This document shows positions 2,735 to 54,929 of a stretch of DNA of 64,000 bases, piece by piece. How positions within the stretch are numbered: the first letter of the stretch is position 1; every line of letters starts with the position of its first letter. A program made the position numbers and the translations under genes. The stretch is taken from the NCBI GenBank assembly GCA_000004985.1, contig GG738895.1; one strand, given 5' to 3'. Source of the DNA: Naegleria gruberi. Its lineage: Eukaryota. A model generated the notes under the pieces. The model was given only the letters and a program-made list of their open reading frames with translations. It was not told where the DNA came from and ran no database searches.

Positions 2735-2871
2735 AGAGGGAGTTTTTATTCATATTTTGTTTTAATTAAAACAAAATTGATGAGAGGCTTTCGTTCCGAA
2801 TTTTTTTTTACGTTAGGTTTGTGATTGAATTCCTACAAACACTGGAAGCCTCTAAAAAACAAACAAAAAAA

Positions 2872-5800: not shown

Positions 5801-5919
5801 GCTCTGCACCAGAAATTTTCACTTGTAAGCAGGGAGAAAACCAAGGGAGACAATTTTACAAATGTCCAAATAAGGATAAGGACGAGGCTTGTAAAAAGTT
5901 TTTCAAATGGGTTGATTAA
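2872..5919 (+). CDS. TOP3: DNA topoisomerase III (type IA; Toprim plus Topo-IA core) with C-terminal zinc-ribbon and GRF-type zinc-finger repeats and an Asn/Gly-rich low-complexity tail
   Basis: Single ORF of 1016 aa starting at AAAAAAAATG (2872). Type IA motifs are present (VLCVAEKPEAAKQIA; YISYPRTETN with the active-site Tyr; GFISYPRTET context). Several C-x2-C...C-x2-C zinc fingers precede a C-terminal FYKCP GRF finger. Confidence 0.85.
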   Translation: MSSRYQNAGGGGNYNNRQGPHQKVLCVAEKPEAAKQIATILSAGKFQRREGKSKFNKIFEFEYRMNGVVVTMSVTSVLGHLMELGFDPKLKSWTSCDPITLMDPATPVFRNVPEKNLEIQQNLEQEARYATKLLLWLDCDREGENIAFEVIEVCKKVNRSLSIENDSILRARFSEFTAAAINRAIRNLERPNVLDSMAVDTRQELDLRIGASFTRFQSLRLKKKFQGITADYISYGPCQFPTLGFVVKRDLIIKNFESESFWTLNCTHDMGEEGKAQFLWKRGRLFDQLTCLVIYELCVEAQRARVVNVEKKRRYKYRPDPLNTIELQKLASQKLKMGSHETMKVAESLYNKGFISYPRTETNNYNQFQDDDLKRLVNEHTSNPTWGGYASDLLNGGYQKPPSGKQDDKAHPPIHPLKGDCNSNDSKEQALYELIARHFLACCSKDAVGAETKVIISIANEEFTCSGLMVEQKNFLEIWKYDRWSDKSIPVFNAGQEFIPTSLLMDHGETRPPPHLSESDLISAMDSNGIGTDATVAQHIKTIQERGYVIKKGNRFEATNLGMALLQGYDLIGYELSTPNLRSKMEKDMLSISKGEQSKEAVIHQSLSMYKHVYIQICKSAYLLDKAVQQHFPTLGEGQSRVLGRGFSLCSCKNPMDLKEQDGNNFLHCKNCSDSYPLPSKSEYESIEDVCPICNFQILNIITQKNTSYKLCPHCFNNPPEIENSNESFANGFKCFNCTFTGCKYSRKKDAVVRKCQKCSNNLVVRQRKNDTSLYIGCKGFPNCKSAVWLPKSIEKADLTTEKCNRCSTRSDTVYRLKFTFAQGTLLPPGVNREHTTCVFCDQDFDEAFNINLNSLNGDSGGASSHGVLVHNSTSNNRNMPNRSPTIAGGGYGNRTSPVGATGRNIAARQNNTPPPNQMTLDRMLGKRTRVDNNNGNNNSNPPPQNSYQRNNTSPRNQFGNNHGGSGSGDVVCTNCSSAPEIFTCKQGENQGRQFYKCPNKDKDEACKKFFKWVD

Positions 5920-8528: not shown

Positions 8529-8677
8529 ATTAAATTTTAGCATATTGAAAGAATTATTTGTAAACTCAGTAATATTAACTCCTTTTGCCAACTATCTCTT
8601 TTAACAAAATGCTAAAATTTCTATTGGAACTTGGTAACCAAGTGGCCATTAAGGGATTATTTTCATTCTGAATGTAT

Positions 8678-8749
8678 TCCCGTGTAGTCCAATGGCTAGG
8701 ATACCTGGCTTTCACCCAGGAGGTCCGGGTTCAATTCCCGGCATGGGAG
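8678..8749 (+). tRNA. tRNA-Glu (anticodon UUC)
   Basis: Canonical 72-nt cloverleaf: acceptor TCCCGTG/CATGGGA, D-loop with GG, anticodon arm CCTGG-CTTTCAC-CCAGG (UUC), T-arm CCGGG-TTCAATT-CCCGG. A T-run downstream (TTTTGTTTTTG) acts as a Pol III terminator. Confidence 0.9.
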
Positions 8750-8816
8750 AATCATTTTGTTTTTGAATTGTTTTGAATTGGTATTCATTTAGAGATAAAC
8801 AGAACTCTCTTAAAAA

Positions 8817-13856: not shown

Positions 13857-16800
13857 TTATTTAAAAGGTTTTTGTGCTTGTCTAATAATCATGTATAAAT
13901 GTGAATCTTGGAATGAATCATTCCTATCATAGATTGATAACAATTTTTCAATTAATTGAATTGGATCAAAATTGCATTGAGATGGTGGTTTTAACAGTGA
14001 GTGATAATATTTTGAATTGTAAACAATTTTTCCATTTTCATCAATATCACCTCTTCCAAAGGCTTCCATTTCTATTATATTATGAGGTTTTGGGGCCACG
14101 GATAAGAAATTGCAAATAATTGATTGTTCCCATTCATTCTTGAAATATAATGAACATGAAAGAATGAATAAATCTGGAAGGAATCTATTAAGTTTTGCAA
14201 TTCTAGTCACTCTATCAAATTGTGAATTCACAGAAGGGATAGAAAGTGAAAGATTATCATATAATAGTTCATCACTGATATGAATTCTTCTACTGAATCT
14301 ATTCAATGTGAAATTAATTCCTTTTCCATTTTCATTAATAAATTTAAATATTTGATTGGCTTCGTATGGACATATTAAAATTATATAATTATCATTCAAG
14401 GAGTGAACAAACCAATCTATTGGTCTCTTGTAATAATCAATTTTAGAGTCAATTGTTGAAATGACAACATTTTTCATACTTTTGGTTGCATAAATGTTAC
14501 CATTCCAAATATTAGGGAGATTGTAAAGTGCAAAAGTATCAGATAATAATTCTTTAACATTTAACATGGTGGAGATATTTGGCTTGAATCCCATAATTAG
14601 CAATTTCAAATTAGTGTCCAATTCAGGAATACAGGGTTCTAATTGAGGAGGTCTAAATACTTGCTTTTCTTCTTCTAATTCATTTTCCAATTCTCTTTCT
14701 TGTTCTTCATTCAGTGTTTGTGAGAATATTTCCATAGTATTGGTTGACAGTTTTTCAATAATTTTTGAAATATTACTCTCAAATATTGTACAAAGATTCT
14801 TTGTGTGTAACGATCTAAAATGTAATTCTTTCAATTTAAATATTTGTGATAATAATTGCTTCTTTCGTTCTAATCCATAAAATGATTGTAATTCAAGTAT
14901 TTCATCTTCAATATATTTGTCATAGTATTGTTGAATAAGTATTGATTTTCCTAATTCTTGATTTAACCATAGTTTATGACTGTAAATCAATCCTTGGACA
15001 GCCCATTGTAATAAATGATCCATTTCCATTTGTTTTGTATTGAAATGTGTCCAGTTAATTATTTCTCTTGTATTGACAGTATTATTCTCTGATAATTTCT
15101 TAATATGTGAATCAACTTCTTTGGATGCCCAGAATGAAACGGTGTGTCCATTCACAGAACATAATTGTCTCATTCTCATGCATGCTTGAACGAACCTTTC
15201 ATTTGAAAGACCATTTCCTAAAGTAACAGCAGCTCTTGTACTTTCTGGAAATTTAATATCCGTCCCTCTTGTATGTACGTCATCTATGTATGTAACACAT
15301 TGTTCTAACTTGTTTTTATATGGAGACAAATCAAAATTAGTAACATGATTATATCTATCTATGACAGTGAGTTCATCATTATCATTAAAATATATTGCAG
15401 CATGGATTTCGTTTGGATTTGAAATTTCTAACCAATATTGTGCCAATTCTTCATTTGTCATTTCTAACATTAGTGCTCCAACGTCTAGTAATACTCTTGT
15501 TGTTTTTTGTGAATTAGCAATAGATTGAATAATGTCTTTGCATGATTGTTCATTTGAAATAACGTGATATTCTTCATTCCTCAAAATGAATGATTCAACA
15601 TTTTTAGAAGTATCTAGTAATTCTTCTAATTCATTTGATTGAATCGAAATTGGTAATAAAAATGATTTTGTGCCACTGAAACCGCTTGATTGATGATTCT
15701 TTTGATTACTTAAATTCCAAGATGAGGAAGTCAACTTTTTAGGAAATTGTTTGCATTCTTTTGGAAATACACACTTATTTAAATAAAAGTCAATAGCTGC
15801 CATTGAATATTTAAAAAATGGAAAAACTACTTCCATTTTTTGATGATAATCGGATAAGTTAATATTTGATAAAGATTTCAATTGTTCAGGTATTTGATTC
15901 TGACCTTCTTCGACCCATTTACAATATTCCTTTTCTGGGTCATCCAATGATAGCAATTCTTCGAATATATATTCAAGTTGAGAATTATCTAATCCACTAT
16001 AATAATAGCTTAATAATGTTAATAAAATTGCGATATCTGGATGACCATATTCAGATCTTTCAGATGGTACGTCTTTGGCTCTAAATGGAACGGCAATTGA
16101 TCTGTTAAAACCAACTCCATAATTAACTCTCCATCTTCTTTCTAATACAAGCTCCAAGGTTCCATACGCTAATAATCCTCTTAGTATTAATAATGATTCC
16201 CACTGGCTTTCTTTAGAATATTGTCTAATTAATTTCAATGTAGAATCATTAATTTCTTCACATGTCAAAAATTGTTTAAATAAAAGTCTATGTTCTGGCT
16301 TGATAGAAATGAAAATTCCTTTCAAGTTTCCATCAAGAATATCATTAACAATATTTTCTACAAGCAATTCAAAAGCTTTTGAATCTAAAATTCTCAAATG
16401 AGGAAATGAATGTTCAAAATTATTCATTTCCCTAAGTTCGACACAAGACGACCCAAATGAATCGAATAAACCTTTAGAATGTTTCTTAATTGATCTAAAT
16501 ACTTTTTGTAAAACATTCCAACGTTGATCTCTACCATCAATTTTTAATTGATTTCCAATTGTATAAATTAGTTGATACCTGGCATGAAGGATTTCATCTG
16601 ATTCATCTAATAAATCTCTACAATTATTTTCTAACCAATCTTGAACTTTAAATAATTGTTGAAAAAGGTCCGATTTAGATTTGATAGATTCAATACATTT
16701 CAATTCAAATGATAATCTATATTCGGGAACTGTGATGAGAACGCCTCTAGCTTTCATACAATTCGAATATAATGTTTGCAGTAACTCACAATCTAGTACT

Positions 16801-19800
16801 TGATGATCTCTATTAAATGGTGTTACTAGTACTGGTTTATCCAATATTCCACCCAATTTGAATCTTAGTGAGTTATAATTTGATGACAGTAGAGATTTTA
16901 AAACAGTTAATCTAACTAATTGATTTTTGTTCTTTCCAAGTTCTAATATTAACATTGGAATGATTACAGATGATTTACCCTCTCCCATATTAAATTGCTG
17001 CAATATATATGATTAAATGAAAGAAATTAATAAATTATACATACCATTACCATATTATTATGTGAATGAATCATATGATTTGCAACTCTAACTTGAACTG
17101 GTCTAATCATTATATTCATTTCTATTTCTAATATTAACCAATATGGATGGTCAGATGGCTTCCAATTTTCATGACCCTTGTTTTCTAATTCTCTTGAATG
17201 AAGTGTTGTCATTTTGGAATACTCTAAAGCTTTTAATCTTTCAGCTCTTTGCAATAATGTTATTAAAACTCCATAACAACCAACTAAATTTTTCAATTTT
17301 TGATTAGTTTGGTCATCTAATAGTAATTTTAAAATATTGGTCTTTGTTACTCGTGGCCATAAGCCAGCAATATAGAGTGCTTGATTGGTGGTATTATCAT
17401 TTGGATGTAACACTTTTTGTATTAAATCTTCCATTTCCATATAAAGAATTTCAACATTATCATCAACTTGGCCAGTTTCAAAGACTCTAGTTGAGAATTC
17501 AATAATATTACTACTCAAATTATTTAGTTGATCAAAATAATCAACCAAAAAGGTCCATTTAGGTTTGCATGGACAATCTTGAATTTGTTTGAAAATTAAA
17601 GGGAATCTACTTGGTATGGTGTATGATGGCAAGTTATTCACCATAACTTGCAACTTTTCAAGGTAAGTATGGAGTTGATAATTTGCTTTCCTTTCCTCAA
17701 ATATAGTTCTCATCTTTTCCTTGTACGTATCCAGAATTAGACTGGATGATTCGAATGAAATATAAATACTATTAGAAGTTTTAAATGTTGAATAGGTATT
17801 AAGTAAATTATTGCTCATTTTTAACTTTTCCTCTGCGATTCTGTTATCATATTTATCTTGATTTTCTCTTGATAGTGTAACATATAAATCTCTGAATGAC
17901 CTTTTATGGTTGTCCAATATTTCTTGTATAGTATATGCATATACATCACATTCCTTGATATTCCTTTCCTTCTCAGAATGTGGATATGAGTACATGATTT
18001 TATCCTTATTAAGATAAATTAACCCTAATAAATTAACTAGCGTCTCATCAAATTCAAAATACATCAGCATTGTTAAAAAAATTATTAATTTTCTTTTAGA
18101 AAATTGTTGAATTTCATCGGTCAGTTTTGAAAAACACGACTTGATATCAACTGTCATCCAACCTTCAATAGTTTTCAAATCTGTTTTGCAATTCTGTGTT
18201 GAATTGATAATAGATTTTATACTATTCAAAGGTCCAAACATATTGTTCTTCAAAGAGTAACATAATTGTCTGCACTTATTGATTTCTTTGGCGTCGGAGT
18301 GAGTTTTCATCCAAAAACTAGAATCAGAGGATTCACTGTCTATTTCACAATCTTTAGAGTAATAGTGAATATCTTTAAAATACGCCTTCCAATAGAGTAA
18401 ATTTAGTATTATTTTTACTCTTTTCAATACTAATAGCTGAAAATAATTTTGAATTTTCTTTCTTAATTCGTTCGCATAATATCATATAGGAGTCTAATTG
18501 TACAATAGACGATAAATTATTATTCCATGTCGTTACTTGCATATCAGTTAAATGTTCTGGATAATAAGATCTCTGTGGAGATAATGTCGATATTAATTCA
18601 AGTAATTCAATCTCAAACTCTTTCATTGGAATATGTAATTGATAACAACGTTTAGATTTCAAGATAGATATTGCAGCTTCATATCCACACAATTTGGTGA
18701 ATGGATCAGGTAAGAAGTAAGAAGTACATCCATGCAAATATGCTAAATACAACCAACTTGCTAAACTTTGCTCTGCTTCCAATCTTTCCAGTTGTGCATT
18801 GACAGTATAGGTGAAGAAGGGAGGAGATGAAACAGAATTTAAATCAATATCTACTTTTACATGACCACTAATGTCTCTAGCTACTTGAATATCTCCATTA
18901 GGAATTACTAATACTGTATTTTTCGAATAGTTATCAACTAATTTGAGCCCTTTTTGCAATCCAATTAATGTTCCTATTTCAAAGTTAGTGGATACTGTCA
19001 TTCCAAATTGTTTACAAATAAATTGTGAGTAATTATTGGACAGAATAAATATTAATCCTTTTCTAGGTAATTCAACAAAAAGAGTATTATCTTGATAGTA
19101 AGAATGTACATGTTCATCTTTTTCAATTCTGCTCATAATTTTCATTATTTCTGTAAATATTTTACTTCTATTGTCTATAAAATATTTCTTATCCTTCATA
19201 TCTAATAACAATCTACTATTCAAATTCAAAGTATAATGAACCTTTGAGAAATTGGTATCTAAGAAAAACATTGGTCTAAATAAAATACAATTAGATTCCT
19301 TATCAATCCAATGACCATATTTTTCTTTGAGTTGAAAAGGTAAATCTTTTGCAAAATATTCATGCGGAAAATAAACTTTTTCCTTATTGTCCTTGGTTAT
19401 TTCACTGATAATTAAAATTTCTTGCTCGATTTGTGATATTAATTTAAATTTGAAAAAGCTTCCACCAAATGTGTTCTTAGTCACAAAGGACTTGAATTCT
19501 GATCCTGGTTGTACATCAAGGACTATTTAGTGTCAATACATCAACATTCTTCATATACTTACCCATATTTTGAAAAATTCTTTGATATTCATTGCTTTTT
19601 GTAATTATTTCTGGTAGCCGTCCAATAGGAGCATGATTTATCAATAATGTTCCGTTAATAATGTTAACTTGGATGAGAACTTCGTTAAATTTAACATAAT
19701 ACCAATTTTCAGATTCTGCATATTGATGCCATTTCAAATTCAATTCTTCTAAATTTCTAACTTCACTCCATTTTTCTTTCAGGAAAATGTTTAATTCAGA

Positions 19801-22800
19801 GCTATCTTTTAACGAATCATGAATTGAATCTTGAATTAATTGTGATGTCTTGATTGTTTCTCTGAACAATAACTTTCTAAATTGAGGGAGTGTATTTAAA
19901 CCAATATTATTCAAAAGTAAATTTTCGTAAATTATTGATCTCGCAAGCAACCATTTAGAAAAATCTCCTAGTAATCTCTGGGAAGAAAAAGGATGAAAAG
20001 TTAAACAGCAGCAACAAGCTGTTTCAGTTTGCAAGTTTCGAATGTTTGTGCACTCGATCGGATTGTCAATAATTTTGAGCAATACTTGTTCACTTTTAGA
20101 TAACCACACAAGGCAGAGTTCTCTAATATCAAGTAATAATTTCTCAACTCTGTTATGCAATCTAGTATTTTCACACATTTCCAAAAATTTTTTGGCACAA
20201 AATACAATGATTACTAATTGATTAATAGATTTCCAATTATTTTCAATTTTTTTCAATAATTTCTGAAGTAGTGAAACAAGCTCATTTGAAAAATTCAAAT
20301 CTCGAACAGGATCATTTGTTTCTCTCCACCAATCTCCTTTGGAAGGGCATGATTGTAATAAACTTTGGAGAATTAAAAAACAAACATCTTGTTCATCAAA
20401 AGAGAGTACGTTATTTGAAAGAACTTTGGCTAAATTATGCATTTGAAGACGATAGCCAGCCCTAAATGATCCAAATTCTATAAATTCTGTAAGAGGAAGT
20501 TTAGGATGACAATTAATTTGAGAGGATAAAACATCATTCTGGTTGTGGCAATAATTTCTAAGGAAAGGAATCAAGCTATTATACCTTCCATTCTTGTCTA
20601 GTAAAAATGAGCATTCTTCAACAATACTGGATTTTGAGAAATGTACGTACTTTCCATCGATAGAAATTCGAAGATTCAGAGCGTTTCTTTTTATAAATTC
20701 ATCTTCAGAATTCCTTGGGTGGTGTTGCTCTTTAGAGTAATGGGATCTCAAATAAGATTTTTGAGAGCTTGTTAAACTAACTCTATTGTGTTTAGTGTTA
20801 GAGTTGTGGTTTCTTAAATACTCTTTCCAAATTTCAGTGCAACCATTAGCTTTTTGCCTTGGATTGTAGTAGTTTACAATTTCAAAGAACTCAATCAATA
20901 CATTGCTCAAGCATCTAAACTCATCAGGAATTAGTAATTCAAAAATAACAGCATTTTTCAAATAATCCTCTTCTGGTAGAACTTTTTCGTATGGCGTAAC
21001 ACTCATTTCACTTGCCCGGTTCTGGTAGTAACATTTCGAACAATGAGATCTGCATTTGTAACGGCGATGGTATTCACTATAATATTCATCATGGGAAATT
21101 TTGCTAGCTTGTTCCAGGTATTCCTGATACGTTTGTTTTGCTTTTCTAACTTCATCTTTTTTAGCTTGGATTTTCTCTTGAATTTCTTTTTCAATATTTT
21201 CTCTCAACCGGATCATAGTTGGATTTCTGTTTGCATATCTGACAGAAAATGAATTTCGGCTTATTTCTGAAAGAAAATCAGGTTGATAAATAGCTGACTG
21301 TTCGAAATTATTGAAATAGGTTTCAAGTTCGAATAGATATTTCCATTCATCTTTTCTATTGAGGTTAATATAATTGAAAATTGAGGTATCAATACCAGTC
21401 TTGTACTCTTTAACCATAGATGATTGTTTTTGTGCAAATTCTATTAACTTTCTAATGATATTTAGACAAGTGAGAATCATTCTACTGAATCCCATTGGAT
21501 CAGTGGCATAAACTGTTTTTGCCACTACTACGTATTGTGTAAATAGGTTATTTAAATTATTAGGTGTACAGTGATAGTCTGTTATCATGTTCTTTCTAAC
21601 CCATTCTTCAATAATAAATAATTCAGATAAAGATGCTTCACCACCGTCTGTTTGACTAATCGTAAATTGAGAAATACTAAAAGATCTATTGAATGATTTT
21701 GGAACAATTTCACTTTCGTCAACTGTTTGTTGTTCTATTTCTCTGTAAAGGTTAATGACTTTTTCAGACTCAACCAATTGTTGATAAATATTATCAGACT
21801 TGTTGGCTGCTGAACCTAAAGTCAAATTAATTTTGGAGGTATCACTGCAAATAATATTCCAATTATTATCCAGATATTTTCTTTGTTCAGCAATAAACTT
21901 GTAGGCATAAGTCAAAATATGCTTGGTTTTAGGATCGTGCAAATCATCCAACTTTTTAAGTCTAATTGCTAGTTTTGAAATAACTTGTAATTTTACCTCA
22001 TCACTCATTTCATGGAAGTGCTTGTTAGCAATATGAATGAAATATTTCATCAATACTGCCTTATAATAAACTTTTCCATCATTCTCGCCATACTTCCAAA
22101 CAAGTAACAATTGCAAAATAATTTTGATGGACATCCACAATCCAGATCTCCTGTAAGGATGCATGGCATTGCTCCATTCAATTGAATTTCTAATCTTTTT
22201 GTTGATCATCTTCTCGTGAGCTAATTCACCACCAAGAAGAGCAACCAACCACTCTGTGATAATTACTGAAGAAACTACATCACGCCCTTCATCTTCTTTA
22301 CTGCCAGCTTTTGTTGATTTTGGTCTTATTTGACCTATTTGATTCGAAAACAAATCTTGCAACAAAGTGGCAAGCTCATCAGAGCAAAGCATTGAGAGAT
22401 TCTCATCCTTGACACTGATAGTAACCTCAGGATAAAGTGTTACAAGATCGCCACACCTAGACATAATCTCCTTGTTGTTTGGATGCACTGTAAATACTGA
22501 AACTTTAGCAGATTGTCCCTTCTCCTTACGAATGATCAAACATGCATTACAGTTTTGAATATAGAGAGGAAGTATAACATTAGCATTGGTATCAAGTAAA
22601 CTTTGTACTTGGCCACCGTCTAAACCAAGTTTGGAGTCAATCTCATCCACATCTTCTTGAACAGACATCCAATTTGTAAATGCCTTCTGAACATCTGCAA
22701 ATTCAACGGCTAATTCATCCATTTTCAAAAATTGGACAAACTCTAAAAGATGAAGTAAATCATAGCCAACAGTCTCTTGTGATGGCAATTTTTTCAATAA

Positions 22801-22842
22801 AAACAAGTCACACAAGAATGTGTCTAGAAATTGTGTTGACAT
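13857..22842 (-). CDS. giant protein of about 2940 aa carrying DUF3638 (MGEGKS P-loop-like motif) and DUF3645 (HTRGTD motif) domains, in 4 exons (22842..19563, 19522..18431, 18372..17051, 16997..13857)
   Basis: Four long collinear minus-strand ORFs joined by short introns: 19523..19562 (GTAAGT..AAATAG), 18373..18430 (alternative donor at 18418), and 16998..17050 (GTAATG..TTGCAG). NMGEGKSSVIIPML is at the start of exon 4 and DDVHTRGTDIKFPESTRAAVTLGNGLS at about 15200-15310. The total coding length is divisible by 3. Confidence 0.7.
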
Positions 22843-35740: not shown

Positions 35741-36028
35741 ATGCCTTATTGAACATTTTTCACGCAAGAATCTCTTTCAATGACGATATATTATTATCTC
35801 CATCTCCATTTGAGTAAGTGCCGCCTTACTTTGTGGACGTTTTTCAAACTCACCTTAATAGAAAACCAAAAAATTAAAACAACAATAAACACCGATACAC
35901 TCTCTCAGAGGTATAATTCATCTCTCATCTGCGCTCGTGGAGTGTGTACTCGCATACTTGAAGAACTTGATACAAACAACAAATAACAACAACAATTTAT
36001 AAGAAGATAATATAGCATTCTTAACAAC

Positions 36029-38683: not shown

Positions 38684-41600
38684 TCAACAACAGCAAGAAC
38701 AACAAGAAGATTTTGAAGATGATCCAGATAATCTCTTTCTTCTCGCTCTTAACACTAAAGCAATGACCACGACAATAATGATGACTACTGTTACAATGAT
38801 AATGAATGAACCACCCAAAGTAGTTGCCAGAATGATAATTTGTTCATTGTTGAGTGAAATTAAATCATTTCTCAATTGTGAAGGTTGCGGCATTCCCTTA
38901 TATTCCGAATTTGCCTTCTTATAATTCTTGTCAATTACTGAAAAGGAAGTCAAGTGAGAAGTTTTGCAAGTAATTAATTGAACATAATATAAAATACCAT
39001 CCACTACTTCCTCATTGTAATATTCAAAAGTGGTAGAAAGTCCTTCACTATTCCACAATTGCATGGAATTATCATAGAATGAACATGTCAAATTGAAAAG
39101 TGTCAAGTTGACTTTGGGAATGTAAACTTTTCCAAATGAAATTTGAATTGGCTCGTTTAGTTGTGAAATTTTCAAAGCTTGATTACTAGAAACGAAGCTC
39201 AATGTTATTACACTAGAAAGGACTTGACCTTTGGTTTCGTCCTTAGACACGGAGGCAATAATGGAAATGTCAGATTTTGGCACTTGATTAGTTTCATTTA
39301 GGTAGGATGATAATGAGCTTGGTAACTTGATAGAAAGCCCATCAAACTTCGTAAAGTTTACCACACGAGAATTCAAATCTTCAACTGTTCCAATAGTTTG
39401 AACAATAATTTCCCTATTCGAATCTTGAATTGGAGCTAGGCATGTGAAATTCTGTTGTTGAGAGAATGATCCTACACAGAACGGAGTAGAACAATCCTTT
39501 CCCAACCAACCTGCTCTACAAGTACATTGATTAGGTGCAGAACAAGTTCCATTTCCATAATTACAAACTTGCGGAGAATTAGCTGGTTGACCAAAACAAA
39601 GATCAATTTCACAATTTAAACCAGTTGAACCAACAGCACAGTTACAAGCATCATAATTTTGGCAATCACCTCTTCCAGAACAAACACTTGCATTTTCAAA
39701 GTGAATTCCAAAACAATTAAAATCTTGACAATACTTTCCATAATATCCAAAAGTACAATTGCATGTTTCTGAAGCAATGCATTGACCTCTTGAATTACAG
39801 ACATTCACATCGGTATTTTCCAAATCGTTACAATAGGTAATATTACAATTGAAACCTGAAAAACCTGGCTTACAAGAGCATGAATTGAGATTCGTACAGT
39901 TTCCATTACGATTATTACAAACTTGTGGAGAATTACTGGCATAACCATAGCAATAAGTAGCACCACAAGCACTTCCATAGAAACCACTATTACACAAACA
40001 CAAATCCTGTTGTAAACAAATTCCATTTCCAGAACAAACATTCAACTGATCTGCCTGCACACCGAAACATGACATGTTTCTTACTTCACAATAAGCTCCA
40101 CCAAATCCATTTTCACATAGGCACGACCGAGAAGCTTGGCATTGACCTCTTCCATTACAAACCTTTGGATCATCTGACATGACATCATTACAAATACTCA
40201 ACTCACAATTTGGACCTCCAAATCCTGGATTACAGGTGCAAAAATTGTAAAACCAACAAGAGCCATGTCCTGAACAAATCTTCTGATCATTAGCCTGCAC
40301 TCCATAGCATGTTTGGTTCAATTCTCTAGTGAGTGTGAAAATATTTCCTCTTGAGGCGAAGGAAATTTCCAAAAATGTCGATTCTTTCACATAAATTGCT
40401 TTTGGATTATCAAGTTGAGAGAAGGGTGGATTGTTCAGTCCCTCCTCTACGTATAGTATTGGAGTAATGAGACCATTAGTCATTGAGATTCTAATTGTTG
40501 ATTCTTCTCCAATGATAAATTCTTTTGTTTTGGTCACGAAGAAACTTGTTGGATATTTTAATTGGGCATTAATGGATTGAATGACAGTATCTCCTGTATC
40601 AGTTCCTCCACCAATGATTCTAATGGCATAGGTCTTGTTCATAACTTGATGGATGGCCATAGTTGTACTTCCTAAAAAGTAAATCATGCCATCAGAACTC
40701 ACAAATAAGGAAGTGATATCTTCCGTTCCAATGAATGCAGTATCAATGGTCAAATTTTGATAAATAATTCTAATTCTATTCTGTGAAGACACATAGATAT
40801 CATTGTTATACAGAGCTATTCCAGATGGATTAGGAACCGATGAAGATCGACCATTGACACCATCTTTGACATTACTGATCATTCCATCACCTGCCAACGT
40901 TTGAACTATTGAATTATTGTACTTGTTAACAAGATGATTTGCTGGTAGTATGTAAAACAAAGCCCCACTTTCATCTGCAACCATTCCACCAACTTGTTCA
41001 TCCGAAACAAGTGAAACTATTCCATTTTCTAGACGATTCATTCTTCTGAAAGGTGAATACTCGGCATATTCACTGAAAAACAATCTATTACTAGAGAATG
41101 TGAATGCATCAATTCTATTAAATGAAGAAAGCAATGGTGGTTGATTACTTGTTGCTACCAAAGTTCCAACAATAGTTGAGATTATTCCATTCTTACTGAT
41201 CTTTCGAATTCTTTGATTGTCGACATCGGCAAAGATGAGTTCATCATTCTCATTGACAACCATATCACCCACTGATGAAGTTTTACTATTAATGGCCAAA
41301 CCTCCATCACCTCCAAAACCATTTTCCATTCCTGCAATTTGCTCAAATTGTCCGCTTGTGTTAAATCTGAAAATTTTGTAAACTTCACATGCAAAATAAA
41401 CATTTCCATTCGAATCAACATCAAAATAAGGATTCAATGAATCTTTCCTGAATAGAGTCAATGCAGTTCCATTCTTGAAAACTTTGTAAAATGTACCCAT
41501 TTCCTGATCGAGAGCATAAAGAGTTTCGTTTACATATTTGGTTGAGTGACTATATTGTGGAAGATTCATAAAGAAAGTAGTATTGGAGGTTCGAATATCT

Positions 41601-42231
41601 AGTTTACGATATGAGCGGGTTGCTGATGATGAGGAGTAGAGTAATTCTCTTTCGTTTAGAATGTGAAGAGAATAGGCTGAACCTTGTAGAAAGTAAACAT
41701 TGGAGACAAGTCCAGTTTTGAAGGAAATTCTTCTGATCATTGCATTTCCACCATCGAGAATATATAAATATTCATTGTTTGGATCAACTGCTAATGAAGG
41801 TATGTATGATCTATTCGAAACATGTTAGTTTCATTTCAAACTAAACCATCCTAAACTTGTAAAACTTACGAAAAGAAAGCATATGTAGCCATAACAGAAT
41901 CTCCACTATACGGTATCAAACTGTTTACTCTAGAATTCCCACCAATCGTATACACATTTCCATTCTTATCAACCTTCTTGATTAGGGGACCTTCTGTGAA
42001 GAATAATTGACCATCTTTCCAAGCCAATGAACCAAGCTGATCAGAAACTCCATAACTAGTGGCTGGAATTCCATTCGTATAGTTGGAACCAACGATGGTT
42101 TTTAGACGATAGGTTGGAGTTTCGAATAGTGCACTCACATGAGATACACACATGCAACTGATTAGCAATAGTGATAAAACCACAGCCACGCACCACAAGA
42201 AACCAAAAGGAACTTTAGGATTTCTTGACAT
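38684..42231 (-). CDS. single-pass receptor in 2 exons (42231..41870 and 41810..38684): signal peptide, NHL-type beta-propeller repeats, tenascin-type EGF repeats, GPS-like motif (CKTSHLTSFSV), TM, and a Ser/Cys-rich tail
   Basis: Intron 41811..41869 runs GTAAGT...GAATAG and keeps the frame. There are more than 10 C-x-C-x-x-G-F/Y-x-G-x-x-C EGF units, and the TM helix is IIILATTLGGSFIIIVTVVIIIVVVIALVL. Confidence 0.7.
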
Positions 42232-48588: not shown

Positions 48589-48605
48589 TAAGGAATATTA
48601 ATTTT

Positions 48606-48614
48606 AAACCAAAA
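48606..48614 (+). promoter_or_regulatory. AAACCAAAA upstream element, 70 nt before tRNA-like gene 1
   Basis: The same 9-mer occurs 69-71 nt upstream of all four tRNA-like genes. An A/T-rich TATA-like stretch sits around -30. Confidence 0.6.
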
Positions 48615-48675
48615 ATGATTTGAATTATTAAAAGAAAATTCACAAATATAGTTAGTGGGAAGATTGCAGATTTGT

Positions 48676-48751
48676 GGGTGAATAGTTTAATTGGGAGAAC
48701 GTAGCCGTTGCACTAGAAGCTAAGGCGGTAGATCGAACCTACCTTCACCTA
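48676..48751 (+). ncRNA. tRNA-shaped ncRNA gene 1 (76 nt) with an enlarged variable loop. It is followed by TTTTT at 48760..48764
   Basis: Acceptor GGGTGAA/TTCACCT, U8, D-arm GTTT-AATTGGGA-GAAC, stem TAGCC/AGCTA with 11-nt loop GTTGCACTAGA, variable AGGC, T-arm GGTAG-ATCGAAC-CTACC, discriminator A. Confidence 0.6.
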
Positions 48752-48871
48752 CGCTTAGCTTTTTCCCCACCAATTCTTAATAATTATTTAATAATACTAT
48801 ATAAATAATATTTAAAGAAATCATATCATACATTAATATTTAGGGTGAATATTTAAAGATATGATGTTAAA

Positions 48872-50472
48872 TTATGATTTTTCCTTTTCACTATTCTCTT
48901 CGTTCATCATAACCAATATTTGTTGAATAATTTCACATAAGGCAGTATCTTGGTCAGAATGCATCATTTCTTCGAGAGTATCCCTTATTCCACACTTATT
49001 CATTTCCTCTCTGAAATTATTGTTTTTCAATAGACTCAAAAGAGTACTCAAACAAATTTGGTTAACAGCTACTAATGACAATCCTTGATGAAGTATTGGT
49101 ACAACTCCAATCTTAATTAAATAATCAATAATATCGTCCGTTGCCGTAGTACATAAATTGTAGATAACATAGTAAGGTTCCTCTTTCACTATTAATTCGG
49201 TATTTTGTTTGACAGCTTCAATCACTAATTCAATAATTCCAGACTCAACAGCCGCTCTAATATGATCAATGGTTCCAGCAGTAATATTTGAAACGATAAA
49301 AATTGCTTCTTTCTTTAGAAAAGCATTCTCATTTAAAATGAAGGATGATAATGCAGATAATAATCGAATATTCAACATGTGGTCTGTATGAGAATTATTT
49401 CTTGTAACTATATATCCAACTAATTGAAGACAACCACTGAAAATATGAATATATTAACGTGAAATATTAAAGAATAATTTGAGAATAGATACTTACACTT
49501 GTATACTTGTACATTCAGAGGAAAGCAGCAAAATAACTTTTTCGATAATATTACCATAAGCTTGAATAAGTATTTCGATATGATCATCACTTATTGCTAT
49601 TTGAATAAGTGCCCAACAAACATTATTGACAACATCCTCATCAGAAGTATTAATTAATTTGGAGAGAACTGGCAGAACCATTTTGACATATTTGATAGAT
49701 ACATATGGTATTCCTCTCATCAAATTTACTAAGCACCATGAACCTAAATTAATCATAAGCCAATCATATCAAATAATATAGACCTACCCGTTCTTAGTAA
49801 ATTTACGAGAAATGTTTCATTTAAAAGATCTAATAAAGGCGTTAATACATCCCACTCCAGGACGAAATCTCTGAACCTGATAGAATCTCCACAAATATTT
49901 CCCAAAGCCCAAATGGCTTGTTCTCTCACGTTACAATCTGTCGAGTTTTTCAGTAGATTGATAAATGTAGGAACACATCCCAGCTCTACAACATGTGCTG
50001 TATCATATGGTGATCCACTAGCAATATTTGTCAATGACAATACTGATTCAAAAATCAATTTGTCAACCTGCACTTTTGTAATTGGATTTTCAGATTGATT
50101 ATTCCCATTTTCAATAGTGTAATATTTTGTAATATTCTCATGATCAAGAAAGTTTACCAACATTTTTGTACTACCGGCTTCAATGACCTTTCGAATATTG
50201 GCCGGTCGGTTATCCTCTCTCACTAATAGGCTTCTAATTGTCGTTACAGTTTCCAATACAGTTTTAAAGGAATTACATTGCATATCCAAATAATAATTTA
50301 AAATTCCGAGTTGATCAAGAGACAAGACTATTTCTCTTCTCTTGAGATGACGATTGCAAAATTTGGTTCGGGATTTATCAGAAATGCTTTTTCTAATTTT
50401 TTGTTTTTCTTTCCAAATGATTGCATTGGCGTGGAAAGATGATGAAATTGTTGCTGATTGTTGTTCACGCAT
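48872..50472 (-). CDS. importin-alpha-like (armadillo-repeat karyopherin) in 3 exons (50472..49788, 49743..49497, 49436..48872)
   Basis: ARM repeats carrying the importin-alpha W/N ladder (AIWALGNICGDS; GSWCLVNLMRG; VVNNVCWALIQIAISDD). Introns at 49744..49787 and 49437..49496 (GTAGGT/GTAAGT...AG). Confidence 0.7.
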
Positions 50473-50638
50473 TTTTTTTTAAAAATTTGCTTGGAAATGA
50501 AAAATTCCATAAATATTTATGCAATCATTGTAAACTAAAAGATACAACAGCAATGATTGAAAATTTATTGAATGAAACCAAATATTTGCATAAATAGCAT
50601 ACAAGTTTTATCAATTTTTCGATAATGTTATTAATTTT

Positions 50639-50647
50639 AAACCAAAA
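50639..50647 (+). promoter_or_regulatory. AAACCAAAA upstream element, 71 nt before tRNA-like gene 2
   Basis: See 48606. Confidence 0.6.
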
Positions 50648-50709
50648 ACTGTTGGAAATTTCCAAATAAAATTTCTCGAAAAAGGTTAATTATGAAATTG
50701 ATTTTTTGT

Positions 50710-50784
50710 GGGTGAATAGTTTAGTGGGAGAACATAGAAGGTACGGTAGATTCTAAGGCGGTAGATCGAAACTACCTTCACCTA
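50710..50784 (+). ncRNA. tRNA-shaped ncRNA gene 2 (75 nt). It is followed by TTTT/TTTTT at 50793..50805
   Basis: Acceptor GGGTGAA/TTCACCT, D-arm GTTT-AGTGGGA-GAAC, stem TAGAA/TTCTA (perfect) with 11-nt loop GGTACGGTAGA, variable AGGC, T-arm GGTAG-ATCGAAA-CTACC. Confidence 0.6.
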
Positions 50785-50871
50785 CACAAAACTTTTAAAT
50801 TTTTGAGTTTACAATAAATGTTTATTTTCTTTAAATAGGCATTTTCAATGCAATTTAAAAAGAATAATTGT

Positions 50872-50880
50872 AAACCAAAA
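50872..50880 (+). promoter_or_regulatory. AAACCAAAA upstream element, 69 nt before tRNA-like gene 3
   Basis: See 48606. Confidence 0.6.
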
Positions 50881-50940
50881 GATTGATTGACATATTTTGA
50901 GAACTTTTACAATAATGATTGGTTCGAATTTCTGATTAGT

Positions 50941-51016
50941 AGGTGAATAGTTTAATTGGGAGAATGCAGTGGTCTATGTTGAATCTGCGGTGGTAGATCG
51001 AAACTACCTTCGCCTA
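50941..51016 (+). ncRNA. tRNA-shaped ncRNA gene 3 (76 nt). It is followed by TTTTT at 51020..51024
   Basis: Acceptor AGGTGAA/TTCGCCT (one G-U pair), D-arm GTTT-AATTGGGA-GAAT, stem (G)CAGT/(A)CTGC with 11-nt loop GTCTATGTTGA, variable CGGT, T-arm GGTAG-ATCGAAA-CTACC. This is the weakest stem of the four copies. Confidence 0.5.
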
Positions 51017-51152
51017 CTCTTTTTCCCTCCAAAATATGAGATAAATCATTTGATGCCTAGAAGACAAAGTACTGTTGAGATATATGATAAAGATCAAGTT
51101 TAAAAAATATGTGGAAATGTCATCATCTCTTTGAATATAGAAAATTAATTGT

Positions 51153-51161
51153 AAACCAAAA
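51153..51161 (+). promoter_or_regulatory. AAACCAAAA upstream element, 71 nt before tRNA-like gene 4
   Basis: See 48606. Confidence 0.6.
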
Positions 51162-51223
51162 ATTGAATTACAATATTTTTAGAAATTTCACAATTAGGGT
51201 TGAGATCATAATTGGTCGTTGTT

Positions 51224-51300
51224 AGGTGAATGGTTTAATTGGGAGAACGCAGAGGTCCAGAGTAGAATCTGAGGTGGCAGATCGAAACTGCCTTCACCTA
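51224..51300 (+). ncRNA. tRNA-shaped ncRNA gene 4 (77 nt). It is followed by TTTTT at 51303..51307
   Basis: Acceptor AGGTGAA/TTCACCT, D-arm GTTT-AATTGGGA-GAAC, stem CAGAG/ATCTG with 12-nt loop GTCCAGAGTAGA, variable AGGT, T-arm GGCAG-ATCGAAA-CTGCC. The T-stem change is compensatory relative to copies 1-3. Confidence 0.6.
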
Positions 51301-51368
51301 ACTTTTTACAACAATATTAAATTTTTTTAAATATTGTAAAGTTTTATTATAAATATACACAGTTTCCA

Positions 51369-51911: not shown

Positions 51912-54900
51912 ATGGTAAAGCTCTGGTATTTTCTGACAGTTTTATTGTCAATATTGATACTAGTGAGCCATTCATGTCAAGCAAAAGTCATTGATCCAAA
52001 TTCTCTCAACGCGGCAGTTGCTACTCATCTATACGAAAGAAAATTTCTGGGAGCTTTATGTGATGGAACTACTGGACTTGCATGTTATACTGGATATGTA
52101 AAACAAACCTTTCTCTACAATGAAACAGAATTGTATTTTACTAATAGTTTTACCAAGTCCATTAACAAGTATAATCTTCAGACGAAAGTGGTGGAAACTA
52201 TTGTTGGAACAGGTTCTTATCACAGAGCTCCTTTAACGCTCAGCGATTTGTATGCAACTCCAAAGGAAACTAATATTGGAGAACCTAATAGCGTTGCTGT
52301 TTATCAAGGATTCGTCTACTTTACAACAATTGAAAATACTGACGTGATTTTCAGAGTCAAAAGTGAAGGTAGTGGACTTGTTACAATCTTTGCTGGTGTT
52401 TCTGGGTCAACTGGTTATAATCCTTTGGTAATTTCAAGAACCTCTTCACCACTTTCTGGTCCAACTTATCTGAATTTCTATTCGAATGGTAATTTAATCT
52501 TGTATGAGAGTGAAATTTGTACCATTCGATTAATTTCTGGTAATAATATTACAACACTCGCAGGAAATGGCCTATGCAACTATGCCTATGTAAACAACAC
52601 ACTTTCGAATGGAATTTCGGCCATGACAATTTCCACCGATCAAATACTCTACATTTCCACACCTAGTGGAGTTATAATGAAATGGAATGGTGCAGATTTC
52701 GTAACTGTCTATGACACCCAAGCTTTTGTCAGCAGTTTGGCAGCAAACTCTGCAAATATTTACTTTACAACAGATACGAATGAGTTAAGCTCAGTTTCTA
52801 TTGATGGTTCGAATAGAGTTGTGTTGATGGGACCTAATCTAGGTTTCATGAGTGATGGCCAAGTTCTTTCTGGTGGAAAGACTGCCTCTCCAATGGCATT
52901 GTCCATTAGTAAGGCAAGTTCAACATTATTCTTTTCCGAAAATGGAAATGCCAGAATTAGAACTTATTTAAATGCCAATGTTAAAACCCTTATTGGATTT
53001 AGCTCATCAGGTTCAGCAGCTACTACTCTTGTCAATCCAACAAAGATGGCTCTCGTTGGATCCAATCTCTATGTTTTAGAGACCATGTCCGGCAGCATCC
53101 TCAATTATGATGTTAGTGGAAACGCTCCTGCTGGAGGTGGTGGTTACAAATTAGTGACATCCATTGCAGGATGTTCCAGTATTGTTGCCATTAATAATAC
53201 AGTCTATGTTGGCTCAACTCTATATAATTCAGTGTATAAGATTGAGGGAACTAAGGCGATAAGAATTGCTGGAAATGGAACTAATTTATCTAGTGGAGAT
53301 GGAAAGTATGCGAATGCTTCAACCATTTCAAATCCATTGGCGTTGGCTTCTGATTCGAGTGGAAGTTTATACATTCTTTCTACAAATATTATTAGAAAGG
53401 TCGATAAGAATGGAATCATTTCCACTCTATACAATTATTTTAGCACTGGATTGAATGATATTTACATTAGTGAAAAGGATGAAATATTAATCAGTGATTT
53501 GAAAGGTTATGTTTATCAATTGACCTGTACAACAGATTTATTTCAATTTTGTGGCTATATCCAAATTGCTGGTGTTTCTAATGGATTAGCCAGAAGTGTT
53601 GGTTTTAATAATGCATTAGAAGTGCCAATTAAGCCACTCACCATCTCTGCAGTGTCAAATTTCAAAACTGGTTACTGGAATACTTTGTTAATTTCTGAAT
53701 CGACAAGTATTTCAGTAGTTTCAGAAGGACTTATTTCTGGATTAGTCTACAATCCAAAGAATAGCCCAACAGTTAGTTTTCAAACCCTTCAAGTGACTGG
53801 CTTTGCAGTCAACCAAACCAATGGAGTCATTTACGTTTCAGGTCCTTACGGAATTTCAACATTAACTCCTTACAAATTACCAAGGGAAGCTTGTCCATGT
53901 TCTGGAAATGGAATTTGCTATTCGAATAATCCAAATCTCTGTCTTTGTGATCAAGGATGGAGTGGAACCAAATGTGCACTTCCATTGTGTAATGGAATTC
54001 TTTCTACAAATCCACAAGTTTGTACGAATGGTCAAGGAGTTTGTAGTGCTCCAGATAGTTGTGTTTGTAAATCTGGATTTGTTGGAACTCAATGTCAAAT
54101 TCCATTCTGTGTAGGATCAACTCTGAATGAAAACTTTACTTGTTCTGAAAGTCAGTCAAATTCGGGAAGCAATTCATCGACAAGTACAAAACAGGAAATT
54201 ATTGTTGAGGTTGTTGAGACAGTGACTGATCTAAATTCCAAGAATTTGACATTTACTACTGTTGACACTATTGAAGTTGTCTTTCCTTCAAACTTTTCAA
54301 GTTATCTTTCACAAACCATTTCACAAATTGCCAATAATCCAATTACACTAGTTTCGTCTGTGGTTGACTCTACAAATTCAAGCACTAATCCAAGTGAAAA
54401 TCCTGTCAAACCTCAACTCGTAGTCAGTCCAGTAATCACTCTCTCACTATTTACCAATTCTTCCATGATAATTTCTGTGAAAAACTTGGAGAAACCAATC
54501 GAATTACTCTTCACAAATATTCAACTCTCAAAAATTGAATCTTCCTCCAATCTTACATGCATGTTTTTCGATACCTCAATCAATGATTGGAGCGACGAAG
54601 GAATTTCCTCAAAAATCATTTCCATTCAACAAGCCGATTCTCAATTCGTAATTTCCATGAAATGTGAAACGAAACATTTAACTTCCTTTGCAGTAATTGA
54701 TAAGAATTATAAGAAACAAGTTTCGTCTCCCAATGAAGGAGGAAACAAAATACCAGCAACTGTTTCTGAATGGAAAAGTCAATTGGAAGGATTGAGTGAA
54801 AGTGAAATTATTGCAATTTCAGTTTCGATTGGTGGATCATGTTTGATTATTGCAACTTTGGCGATTTTAATTAGTGTAGTTTGTATCATTGTCATGAAGA

Positions 54901-54929
54901 GAAAGAAAAATCGTTGTTTAACCATTTAA
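51912..54929 (+). CDS. paralog of the 38684..42231 receptor: signal peptide, NHL-type repeats, tenascin-type EGF repeats, GPS-like motif (MKCETKHLTSFAV) and TM, in a single exon
   Basis: ORF of 1005 aa. The domain order and many local motifs are shared with the minus-strand paralog (for example IVGTGSYH/ILAGDGMISN, CxCxxGFxGxxC units, HLTSFAVIDKNYKK versus HLTSFSVIDKNYKK). The C-terminal TM helix is IIAISVSIGGSCLIIATLAILISVVCIIV. Confidence 0.7.
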   Translation: MVKLWYFLTVLLSILILVSHSCQAKVIDPNSLNAAVATHLYERKFLGALCDGTTGLACYTGYVKQTFLYNETELYFTNSFTKSINKYNLQTKVVETIVGTGSYHRAPLTLSDLYATPKETNIGEPNSVAVYQGFVYFTTIENTDVIFRVKSEGSGLVTIFAGVSGSTGYNPLVISRTSSPLSGPTYLNFYSNGNLILYESEICTIRLISGNNITTLAGNGLCNYAYVNNTLSNGISAMTISTDQILYISTPSGVIMKWNGADFVTVYDTQAFVSSLAANSANIYFTTDTNELSSVSIDGSNRVVLMGPNLGFMSDGQVLSGGKTASPMALSISKASSTLFFSENGNARIRTYLNANVKTLIGFSSSGSAATTLVNPTKMALVGSNLYVLETMSGSILNYDVSGNAPAGGGGYKLVTSIAGCSSIVAINNTVYVGSTLYNSVYKIEGTKAIRIAGNGTNLSSGDGKYANASTISNPLALASDSSGSLYILSTNIIRKVDKNGIISTLYNYFSTGLNDIYISEKDEILISDLKGYVYQLTCTTDLFQFCGYIQIAGVSNGLARSVGFNNALEVPIKPLTISAVSNFKTGYWNTLLISESTSISVVSEGLISGLVYNPKNSPTVSFQTLQVTGFAVNQTNGVIYVSGPYGISTLTPYKLPREACPCSGNGICYSNNPNLCLCDQGWSGTKCALPLCNGILSTNPQVCTNGQGVCSAPDSCVCKSGFVGTQCQIPFCVGSTLNENFTCSESQSNSGSNSSTSTKQEIIVEVVETVTDLNSKNLTFTTVDTIEVVFPSNFSSYLSQTISQIANNPITLVSSVVDSTNSSTNPSENPVKPQLVVSPVITLSLFTNSSMIISVKNLEKPIELLFTNIQLSKIESSSNLTCMFFDTSINDWSDEGISSKIISIQQADSQFVISMKCETKHLTSFAVIDKNYKKQVSSPNEGGNKIPATVSEWKSQLEGLSESEIIAISVSIGGSCLIIATLAILISVVCIIVMKRKKNRCLTI

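Follow-up and report, generated by a model that had tools for sequence, protein, structure and literature searches.

A conserved upstream 16-mer at four tRNA-like loci of Naegleria gruberi as a candidate element of a composite RNA polymerase III promoter

In type 3 promoters of RNA polymerase III (Pol III), a proximal sequence element (PSE) at -50/-60 is combined with a TATA box at -30, and the gene for the selenocysteine tRNA (tRNA-Sec) is among those organised in this way (PMC7279448). Small nuclear RNA (snRNA) genes of plants carry an upstream sequence element (USE; RTCCCACATCG) at -70 together with TATA at -28/-30, a layout that serves both Pol II and Pol III (PMC9845283). In dictyostelids, genes for non-coding RNA (ncRNA) are preceded at about 60 nt by the Dictyostelium upstream sequence element (DUSE; [AT]CCCA[CT]AA), which in some groups has only two consecutive Cs (PMC7919456). 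The type-2 genes 7SL, vault, EBER and 4.5SH/4.5SI have intragenic A and B boxes and, in addition, a non-canonical -30 box (TTCAAGTA, TTCTAGTA) and an upstream factor site (PMC7279448). Here we describe four tRNA-like units in a stretch of 64,000 nt of the Naegleria gruberi genome (assembly GCA_000004985.1, contig GG738895.1; hereafter the window), each preceded at an almost constant distance by a conserved 16-mer, TAATTKTAAACCAAAA. On balance, the sequence favours the view that the four units are Pol III transcription units with a composite promoter and, by analogy, type-2 genes with 5'-flank elements are their best match among described systems.

An earlier note on this DNA had reported that in each unit the 9-mer AAACCAAAA precedes tRNA position 1 by 69-71 nt, and recomputation returned the same starts (48606, 50639, 50872 and 51153). 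The distances from these starts to tRNA position 1 (48676, 50710, 50941 and 51224) are 70, 71, 69 and 71 nt in units 1 to 4, and those to the first base of the extended terminal stem are 68, 69, 67 and 68 nt. In the window the 9-mer occurs eight times, always on the + strand, where 3.6 copies are expected and two of 100 shuffles attain eight. The count alone is mildly unusual; the signal lies in the fixed position and in the extended motif. Alignment of the four loci showed that the conserved element is longer than the 9-mer and corresponds to the 16-mer, which starts at 48599, 50632, 50865 and 51146 and occupies -75/-60, counted from where the terminal stem starts. The window contains it four times in exact form, every time upstream of one of the units, with about 0.001 expected from base composition. 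Its single variable position (T/G) sorts units 1 and 2 from units 3 and 4. As defined by exact match and position, the upstream element reads TAATTTTAAACCAAAA in unit 1 (48599-48614, -75 to -60 from the stem start) and unit 2 (50632-50647, -76 to -61), and TAATTGTAAACCAAAA in unit 3 (50865-50880, -74 to -59) and unit 4 (51146-51161, -75 to -60), in each case on the + strand. A search of the window for further genes with such a promoter (the 9-mer with at most one mismatch, outside long open reading frames (ORFs), followed by a T5 run) returned the four units only.

The nearest inexact copies of the 16-mer in the window start at 35856 and 50525 and have two mismatches each. The copy at 50525-50540 (TCATTGTAAACTAAAA) is found 107 nt 5' of the motif of unit 2, has no unit downstream and may be a decayed copy of the motif. 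The copy at 35856-35871 (TAATAGAAAACCAAAA) is apparently intergenic, about 158 nt 5' of the ATG at 36029, and no T-run terminator follows it. The remaining four 9-mers had been assigned exclusively to coding sequence, which does not hold for the one at 35863, since this copy appears intergenic, about 166 nt before the same ATG.

Because the four units are paralogues, the probability of chance occurrence is the wrong null for this motif; the test that matters is differential decay. Among the units, pairwise identity is 0.94-1.00 for the 16-mer and 0.78-0.85 for the tRNA-like RNA. For the spacer of 58-60 nt between the two it is 0.52-0.69, with shuffled spacers at 0.54 +/- 0.03 and a maximum of 0.63. 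The 60 nt upstream of the 16-mer give values of 0.49-0.59 and the 60 nt downstream of the RNA values of 0.45-0.61. Expressed per alignment column, identity is 0.96 in the upstream element, 0.46-0.49 in the spacers, 0.63 in a block at -40/-22 and 0.78 in the RNA. The 16-mer is better kept than the RNA behind it, and the surrounding DNA is saturated. The length of the spacer is 59, 60, 58 and 59 nt in units 1 to 4. That the motif has outlasted the RNA in saturated DNA, with the length of the spacer held, is good evidence that purifying selection has acted on the cis-element as well as on its spacing, and a function of the motif is very probable. The distance from the end of the preceding unit to the next upstream element is variable (about 80 and 129 nt) and that from the element to the following unit is fixed, which assigns the motif to the downstream gene.

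The same copies could be read as the outcome of segmental duplications, with the motif as a functionless relic of them. The units are indeed paralogues in tandem or near-tandem arrangement, units 2-4 following each other with periods of 233 and 281 bp and unit 1 lying 2 kb off beyond an Arm-repeat gene, and the lone T/G position follows the subfamily split between units 1/2 and units 3/4. However, this explanation is very improbable, as the flanks and spacers are at shuffled identity while the 16-mer stands at 94-100%, above the RNA, and as the length of the spacer stays within 1 nt of 59 despite the turnover of its sequence.

A second, weakly conserved block, TTYWCRAWWA, is found at -36/-23. 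It corresponds to alignment columns 44-62, in which identity is 0.63 compared with 0.46 in the spacers. In this block, here termed box 2, unit 1 reads ATTCACAAATATAG (48638-48651, -36 to -23), unit 2 TTTCTCGAAAAAGG (50672-50685, the most diverged copy), unit 3 ACTTTTACAATAAT (50903-50916) and unit 4 ATTTCACAATTAGG (51185-51198), all placed by the alignment and on the + strand. Box 2 is closer to the non-canonical -30 boxes of flank-controlled type-2 genes than to TATA (PMC7279448). The TATA-like stretches that the earlier note had seen near -30 are at background level: the best matches to TATA hexamers in -36 to -20 are 5, 4, 5 and 4 of 6, and among AT-rich windows of 17 nt drawn from the whole window as background 53% score 4/6 and 40% score 5/6. 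Moreover, the stretch TAATTATG of unit 2, which had been placed at -35 to -25, is located at about -23 to -16.

The RNAs encoded downstream have the shape of a tRNA. Searched singly with the Rfam tRNA model, units 1 to 4 score 44.3, 46.7, 35.4 and 41.9 bits, all above the gathering score of 29 bits, and the fit requires 13, 11, 15 and 14 nt in place of the 7-nt anticodon loop. A cloverleaf with a 9-bp terminal stem comprises 22 pairs, of which four are changed on both sides, and 98.9% of its cells are paired, whereas register-shifted controls are all 38-47% paired. The variable region is 4 nt and the T stem 5 bp, and the tertiary positions of tRNAs are present (U8, A14, G18G19, A21, U55, C56 and G53-C61). 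On the + strand, unit 1 (48674-48752, 79 nt) has a 9-bp terminal stem, a 13-nt 'anticodon' loop, an A-box-like sequence at 48683-48696 and a T arm at 48727-48743. Unit 2 (50708-50785, 78 nt) has a 9-bp terminal stem, a 5-bp anticodon-type stem with an 11-nt loop and a T arm at 50760-50776. Unit 3 (50939-51017, 79 nt) has a 9-bp terminal stem, a 15-nt loop and a T arm at 50992-51008. Unit 4 (51221-51302, 82 nt) has a 10-bp terminal stem, the tenth pair of which is a matching one-base insertion on both strands, a 14-nt loop and a T arm at 51276-51292, with a compensatory GGCAG/CTGCC change. A covariance model built from the family itself (R1) scores the four units at 101, 95.5, 97.3 and 99.5 bits. 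The RNAs appear to be under structural selection, as an unexplained family of small RNAs.

Since all units exceed the Rfam gathering score, A and B boxes are implied, and A-box-like (TAGTTTAATTGGG) and B-box-like (AGATCGAAACT) sequences are intact in all four, with a predicted use in transcription. They are close to the consensus of tRNA genes, which is TRGCNNAGTGG for the A box and GGTTCGANNCC for the B box.

The tRNA-like RNAs are probably not decoders, because a loop of 11-15 nt replaces the anticodon loop. ARAGORN called only a tRNA-Glu (8677-8750) in the window. An intron-containing decoding tRNA was rejected, as none of the units is called with introns allowed at default settings. Under relaxed settings the program places 'introns' of 3-5 nt at four different positions and reads the units as Stop, Tyr, Gln and Trp, and no reading yields U33 and a 7-nt loop in all four; a consistent reading as decoding tRNAs is lacking.

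The loops (48706-48718, 50739-50749, 50970-50984 and 51254-51267) have conserved edges, GGU/CGU on the 5' side and UAGAA/UUGAA on the 3' side, and variable middles (UGCAC, ACGG, CUAUG and CCAGAG in units 1 to 4). The overall picture resembles a variable loop presented on a constant scaffold. The T loop reads AUCGAAA, with A54 and A60, and AUCGAAC in unit 1 (48732-48738); we take AUCGAAA to be the T loop of the eukaryotic initiator tRNA, which would disfavour binding of elongation factor. Units 3 and 4 have an A1-U72 pair.

Each unit is followed by a T run of at least five, as had been claimed: a T5 is located downstream of all four. Unit 1 has T5 at 48760-48764, unit 2 has T4 at 50793-50796 and T5 at 50800-50804 (together 50793-50804), unit 3 has T5 at 51020-51024, and in unit 4 the T5 at 51303-51307 directly abuts the stem; all are on the + strand. 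These runs bear on the suggestion that the motif is itself transcribed, as part of a longer Pol II or Pol III precursor in which it would act as 5' leader or processing signal, with the RNA freed by RNase P and RNase Z. A tRNA-like fold would permit such processing, and the array, being tandem, might in principle be transcribed as one polycistron. However, a T4-T5 run of its own in every unit would halt Pol III before the next one, conservation is lacking in the leader that joins motif and RNA, and the two to three extra pairs conserved in the terminal stem suggest a transcript that begins and ends with this stem. A transcribed motif is accordingly highly unlikely.

The earlier note had described the layout as that of type 3 genes and not of ordinary tRNA genes. 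The first part of this is borne out by an external element near -70, a weak block near -30 and the T runs, but the A-box-like and B-box-like sequences are kept and the units score 35-47 bits with the tRNA model, which makes this description too strong. Of the features that define type 3, an upstream element at fixed distance (-50 to -70) is found in four of four units, with spacers of 58-60 nt, and a canonical TATA near -30 is lacking. The features of a mixed type-2 gene (A and B boxes, a conserved -30 box and an upstream site) are all found, with their function predicted from the sequence. The layout therefore seems to fit a mixed promoter, type 2 plus upstream element, better than a pure type 3. 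Flank-controlled type-2 genes differ in that CRE/ATF or Sp1 sites, at -50 or -60/-90, take the place of the unrelated A-rich 16-mer, and in that their RNAs are unrelated to those of Naegleria.

What is observed at the locus is the motif with its spacing, the differences in conservation between segments, covariation in the structure and the T runs. That the units are expressed, by which polymerase, from which start and with which bound factor is inferred, and the following mechanism is proposed. The gene-external element of 16 bp at -75/-60 would be bound by a sequence-specific factor, most likely a SNAPc-like complex or another factor of Myb type. The block at -36/-23 would be the seat of TFIIIB and the TATA-binding protein (TFIIIB/TBP), and the intragenic A-box-like and B-box-like sequences would be bound by TFIIIC. 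The rigid spacer of 58-60 bp would place the start site on the G with which the terminal stem of 9-10 bp begins, or a few bases from it at most. Termination at the T4-T5 run, 0-14 nt beyond the stem, would then give an RNA of about 85-100 nt with a tRNA-like L-shape and a loop of 11-15 nt at the place of the anticodon loop.

A wider proposal is that TAATTKTAAACCAAAA corresponds in Heterolobosea to the PSE, to the USE of plants and to DUSE, driving an undescribed family of non-decoding tRNA-shaped RNAs that is possibly a functional analogue of the tRNA-like RNA found in the trypanosomatid signal recognition particle (SRP) or a tRNA mimic or decoy. This is put forward as speculation and is doubtful as a whole.

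Several findings weigh against the composite promoter and, in particular, against its generality. The evidence base consists of four paralogues at one 2.7-kb locus in one genome of a single lineage. Hexamer matching found no canonical TATA box near -30 in any of the four units, and the 16-mer is a low-complexity, A-rich sequence in a genome whose G+C content is about 33%. A tRNA-Glu(UUC) at 8678-8749 (67 bits with the Rfam tRNA model, with T4 and T5 runs beginning 6 nt past its end), the one canonical tRNA gene of the window, is without the motif, as had been noted before; nothing resembling the upstream element is present within 150 nt upstream of it. Apart from this tRNA-Glu the window was found to contain no other ncRNA genes, and none of snRNA type. 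Short-tract gene conversion could in principle hold a segment identical, although it would be odd for the RNA then to be less conserved than the motif.

The search for relatives points in the same direction. In metagenomes of the Joint Genome Institute (JGI), 20 loci fitted the RNA by pattern, all of them chance matches in GC-rich coding DNA, and the covariance model recognised none at the matched site. Viral contigs, scanned twice, yielded either no match at all or one that was due to chance and lacked a T arm; with no true relative in either scan, a viral origin was ruled out. Genomes of prokaryotes gave three chance matches, none recognised by the model, and no such units were found in contigs of an Arm homologue, of a Naegleria-like organism and of Willaertia magna. 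Since the Arm-repeat and teneurin-like genes neighbouring the units have no close orthologues on record, synteny cannot be used.

Some of these findings suit an alternative in which the 16-mer is a family-specific activator or repressor site that tunes an ordinary type-2 gene with A and B boxes, and not a general equivalent of the PSE or USE of snRNA-type genes. The intact A and B boxes and the scores of the units above the Rfam tRNA threshold are what this alternative predicts, the tRNA-Glu without the motif and the lack of a TATA box agree with it, and there are known type-2 genes that have CRE or Sp1 sites upstream (PMC7279448). However, the rigid spacing of 58-60 nt and the position at -70 are more typical of core promoter elements, and a family-specific site is possible but rather unlikely.

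The plant USE resembles the Naegleria element in its location at about -65/-70 with rigid spacing, in the presence of a second element at about -30, in the T-run termination of its Pol III members and in a CCA-containing core. The two differ in sequence (TAAACCAAAA versus TCCCACATCG), and the Naegleria units lack a canonical TATA, have A and B boxes, encode tRNA-like RNAs and not snRNAs, and belong to the lineage Discoba. DUSE is likewise a short, A-rich motif containing Cs, located at about -60 and required ahead of small ncRNA genes, which often have T runs at their ends, whereas the Naegleria element has a length of 16 nt and begins at -75. The earlier note had drawn this parallel, with a matching position and a different sequence. 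The difference in sequence is confirmed; with N. gruberi as the host, however, the parallel amounts to an analogy across supergroups at most. Membership in DUSE and a dictyostelid origin of the DNA were both rejected, as AACCAAAA misses the consensus at two of eight positions and the host proteins are 100% N. gruberi.

Vertebrate tRNA-Sec has an acceptor stem of 9 bp. The likeness of its gene (PSE and TATA with an internal B box) to the Naegleria units lies in the shape of a tRNA, in an acceptor-type stem of 9 bp and in a start that would be set from upstream, which allows the transcript to begin with the 5' end of the stem. The Naegleria units, however, have no UCA anticodon, no long variable arm (4 nt) and no TATA, and their T stem is of 5 bp and not 4. 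A eukaryotic tRNA-Sec of the 9/4 fold is thus excluded by the 5-bp T stem, the 4-nt variable region and the absent UCA; the acceptor-type stem is 9-10 bp. Brf2 is reported in vertebrates only (PMC4671959).

Vault RNAs likewise come from Pol III genes in tandem that contain A and B boxes, and they have a terminal stem and a variable middle. They were rejected as an identity of the units, for which no match to the Rfam Vault model was obtained at E<=10 and in which the T arm adjoins the acceptor strand as in a true tRNA. Naegleria spp. have been reported to be without full-length genes for the major vault protein (MVP), which also counts against vault RNA (PMC12547018).

The nearest biological analogue in Discoba may be the SRP tRNA-like RNA of trypanosomatids (sRNA-76/sRNA-85), a literature lead that is likened here by description: it is a non-decoding, tRNA-shaped small RNA from another lineage of this group (PMC2800229). 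In trypanosomatids, the promoters of Pol III small-RNA genes are neighbouring tRNA genes and not an upstream motif (PMC4950102). Variable loops set the Naegleria RNAs apart as a family in four copies; to our knowledge, sRNA-76/sRNA-85 does not form a multi-copy family with such loops.

Upstream promoter elements of Pol III genes are known from plants, animals and slime moulds, and the Naegleria motif would be a modest, lineage-specific addition to them. A literature search found no published work on Pol III or snRNA promoter elements of Heterolobosea, or on tRNA-like RNAs of Naegleria. If the 16-mer were indeed a counterpart of the PSE, USE and DUSE, it would be the first snRNA-type or Pol III core promoter element defined in the deep lineage Heterolobosea. 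A defined element would help to locate ncRNA genes that annotations of Naegleria have missed, those of the pathogen N. fowleri among them, would be a candidate promoter for guide RNAs or other small RNAs in these amoebae, and would add a data point on the breadth among eukaryotes of the layout with one element at -70 and another at -30.

The DNA surrounding the units is gene-dense and has about 33% G+C. An ORF for topoisomerase III (2821-5919) matches an NCBI 'predicted protein [Naegleria gruberi]' at 100% identity, and an ORF of 1005 aa adjoining the tRNA-like locus is 100% identical to an N. gruberi protein. Given these protein identities, the gene density and the G+C content, the window is nuclear DNA of a heterolobosean (Discoba) and not of a dictyostelid. 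A scan of the window for bacterial promoters and terminators is uninformative for eukaryotic DNA. The gene that separates unit 1 from units 2-4 is Arm/importin-alpha-like (48872-50472, - strand) and has two short introns of about 50-60 nt. With its first exon (239 aa) as a query, no N. gruberi protein and only four distant matches were retrieved, and for this reason the gene model is probably missing from public annotation. On the - strand at 13857-22842, very large ORFs of 1048, 466, 369 and 1108 aa follow in a row with the domains DUF3638, DUF3645 and DUF6606, and these are probably one or two giant genes of unknown function. Two further genes, at 38684-41740 (- strand) and 51912-54929 (+ strand), encode paralogous teneurin-like proteins. 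The protein at 51912-54929 has no relative below E = 1e-60 except the N. gruberi protein itself. Both paralogues carry EGF and NHL domains, and one of them has a weak match to the GPS motif.

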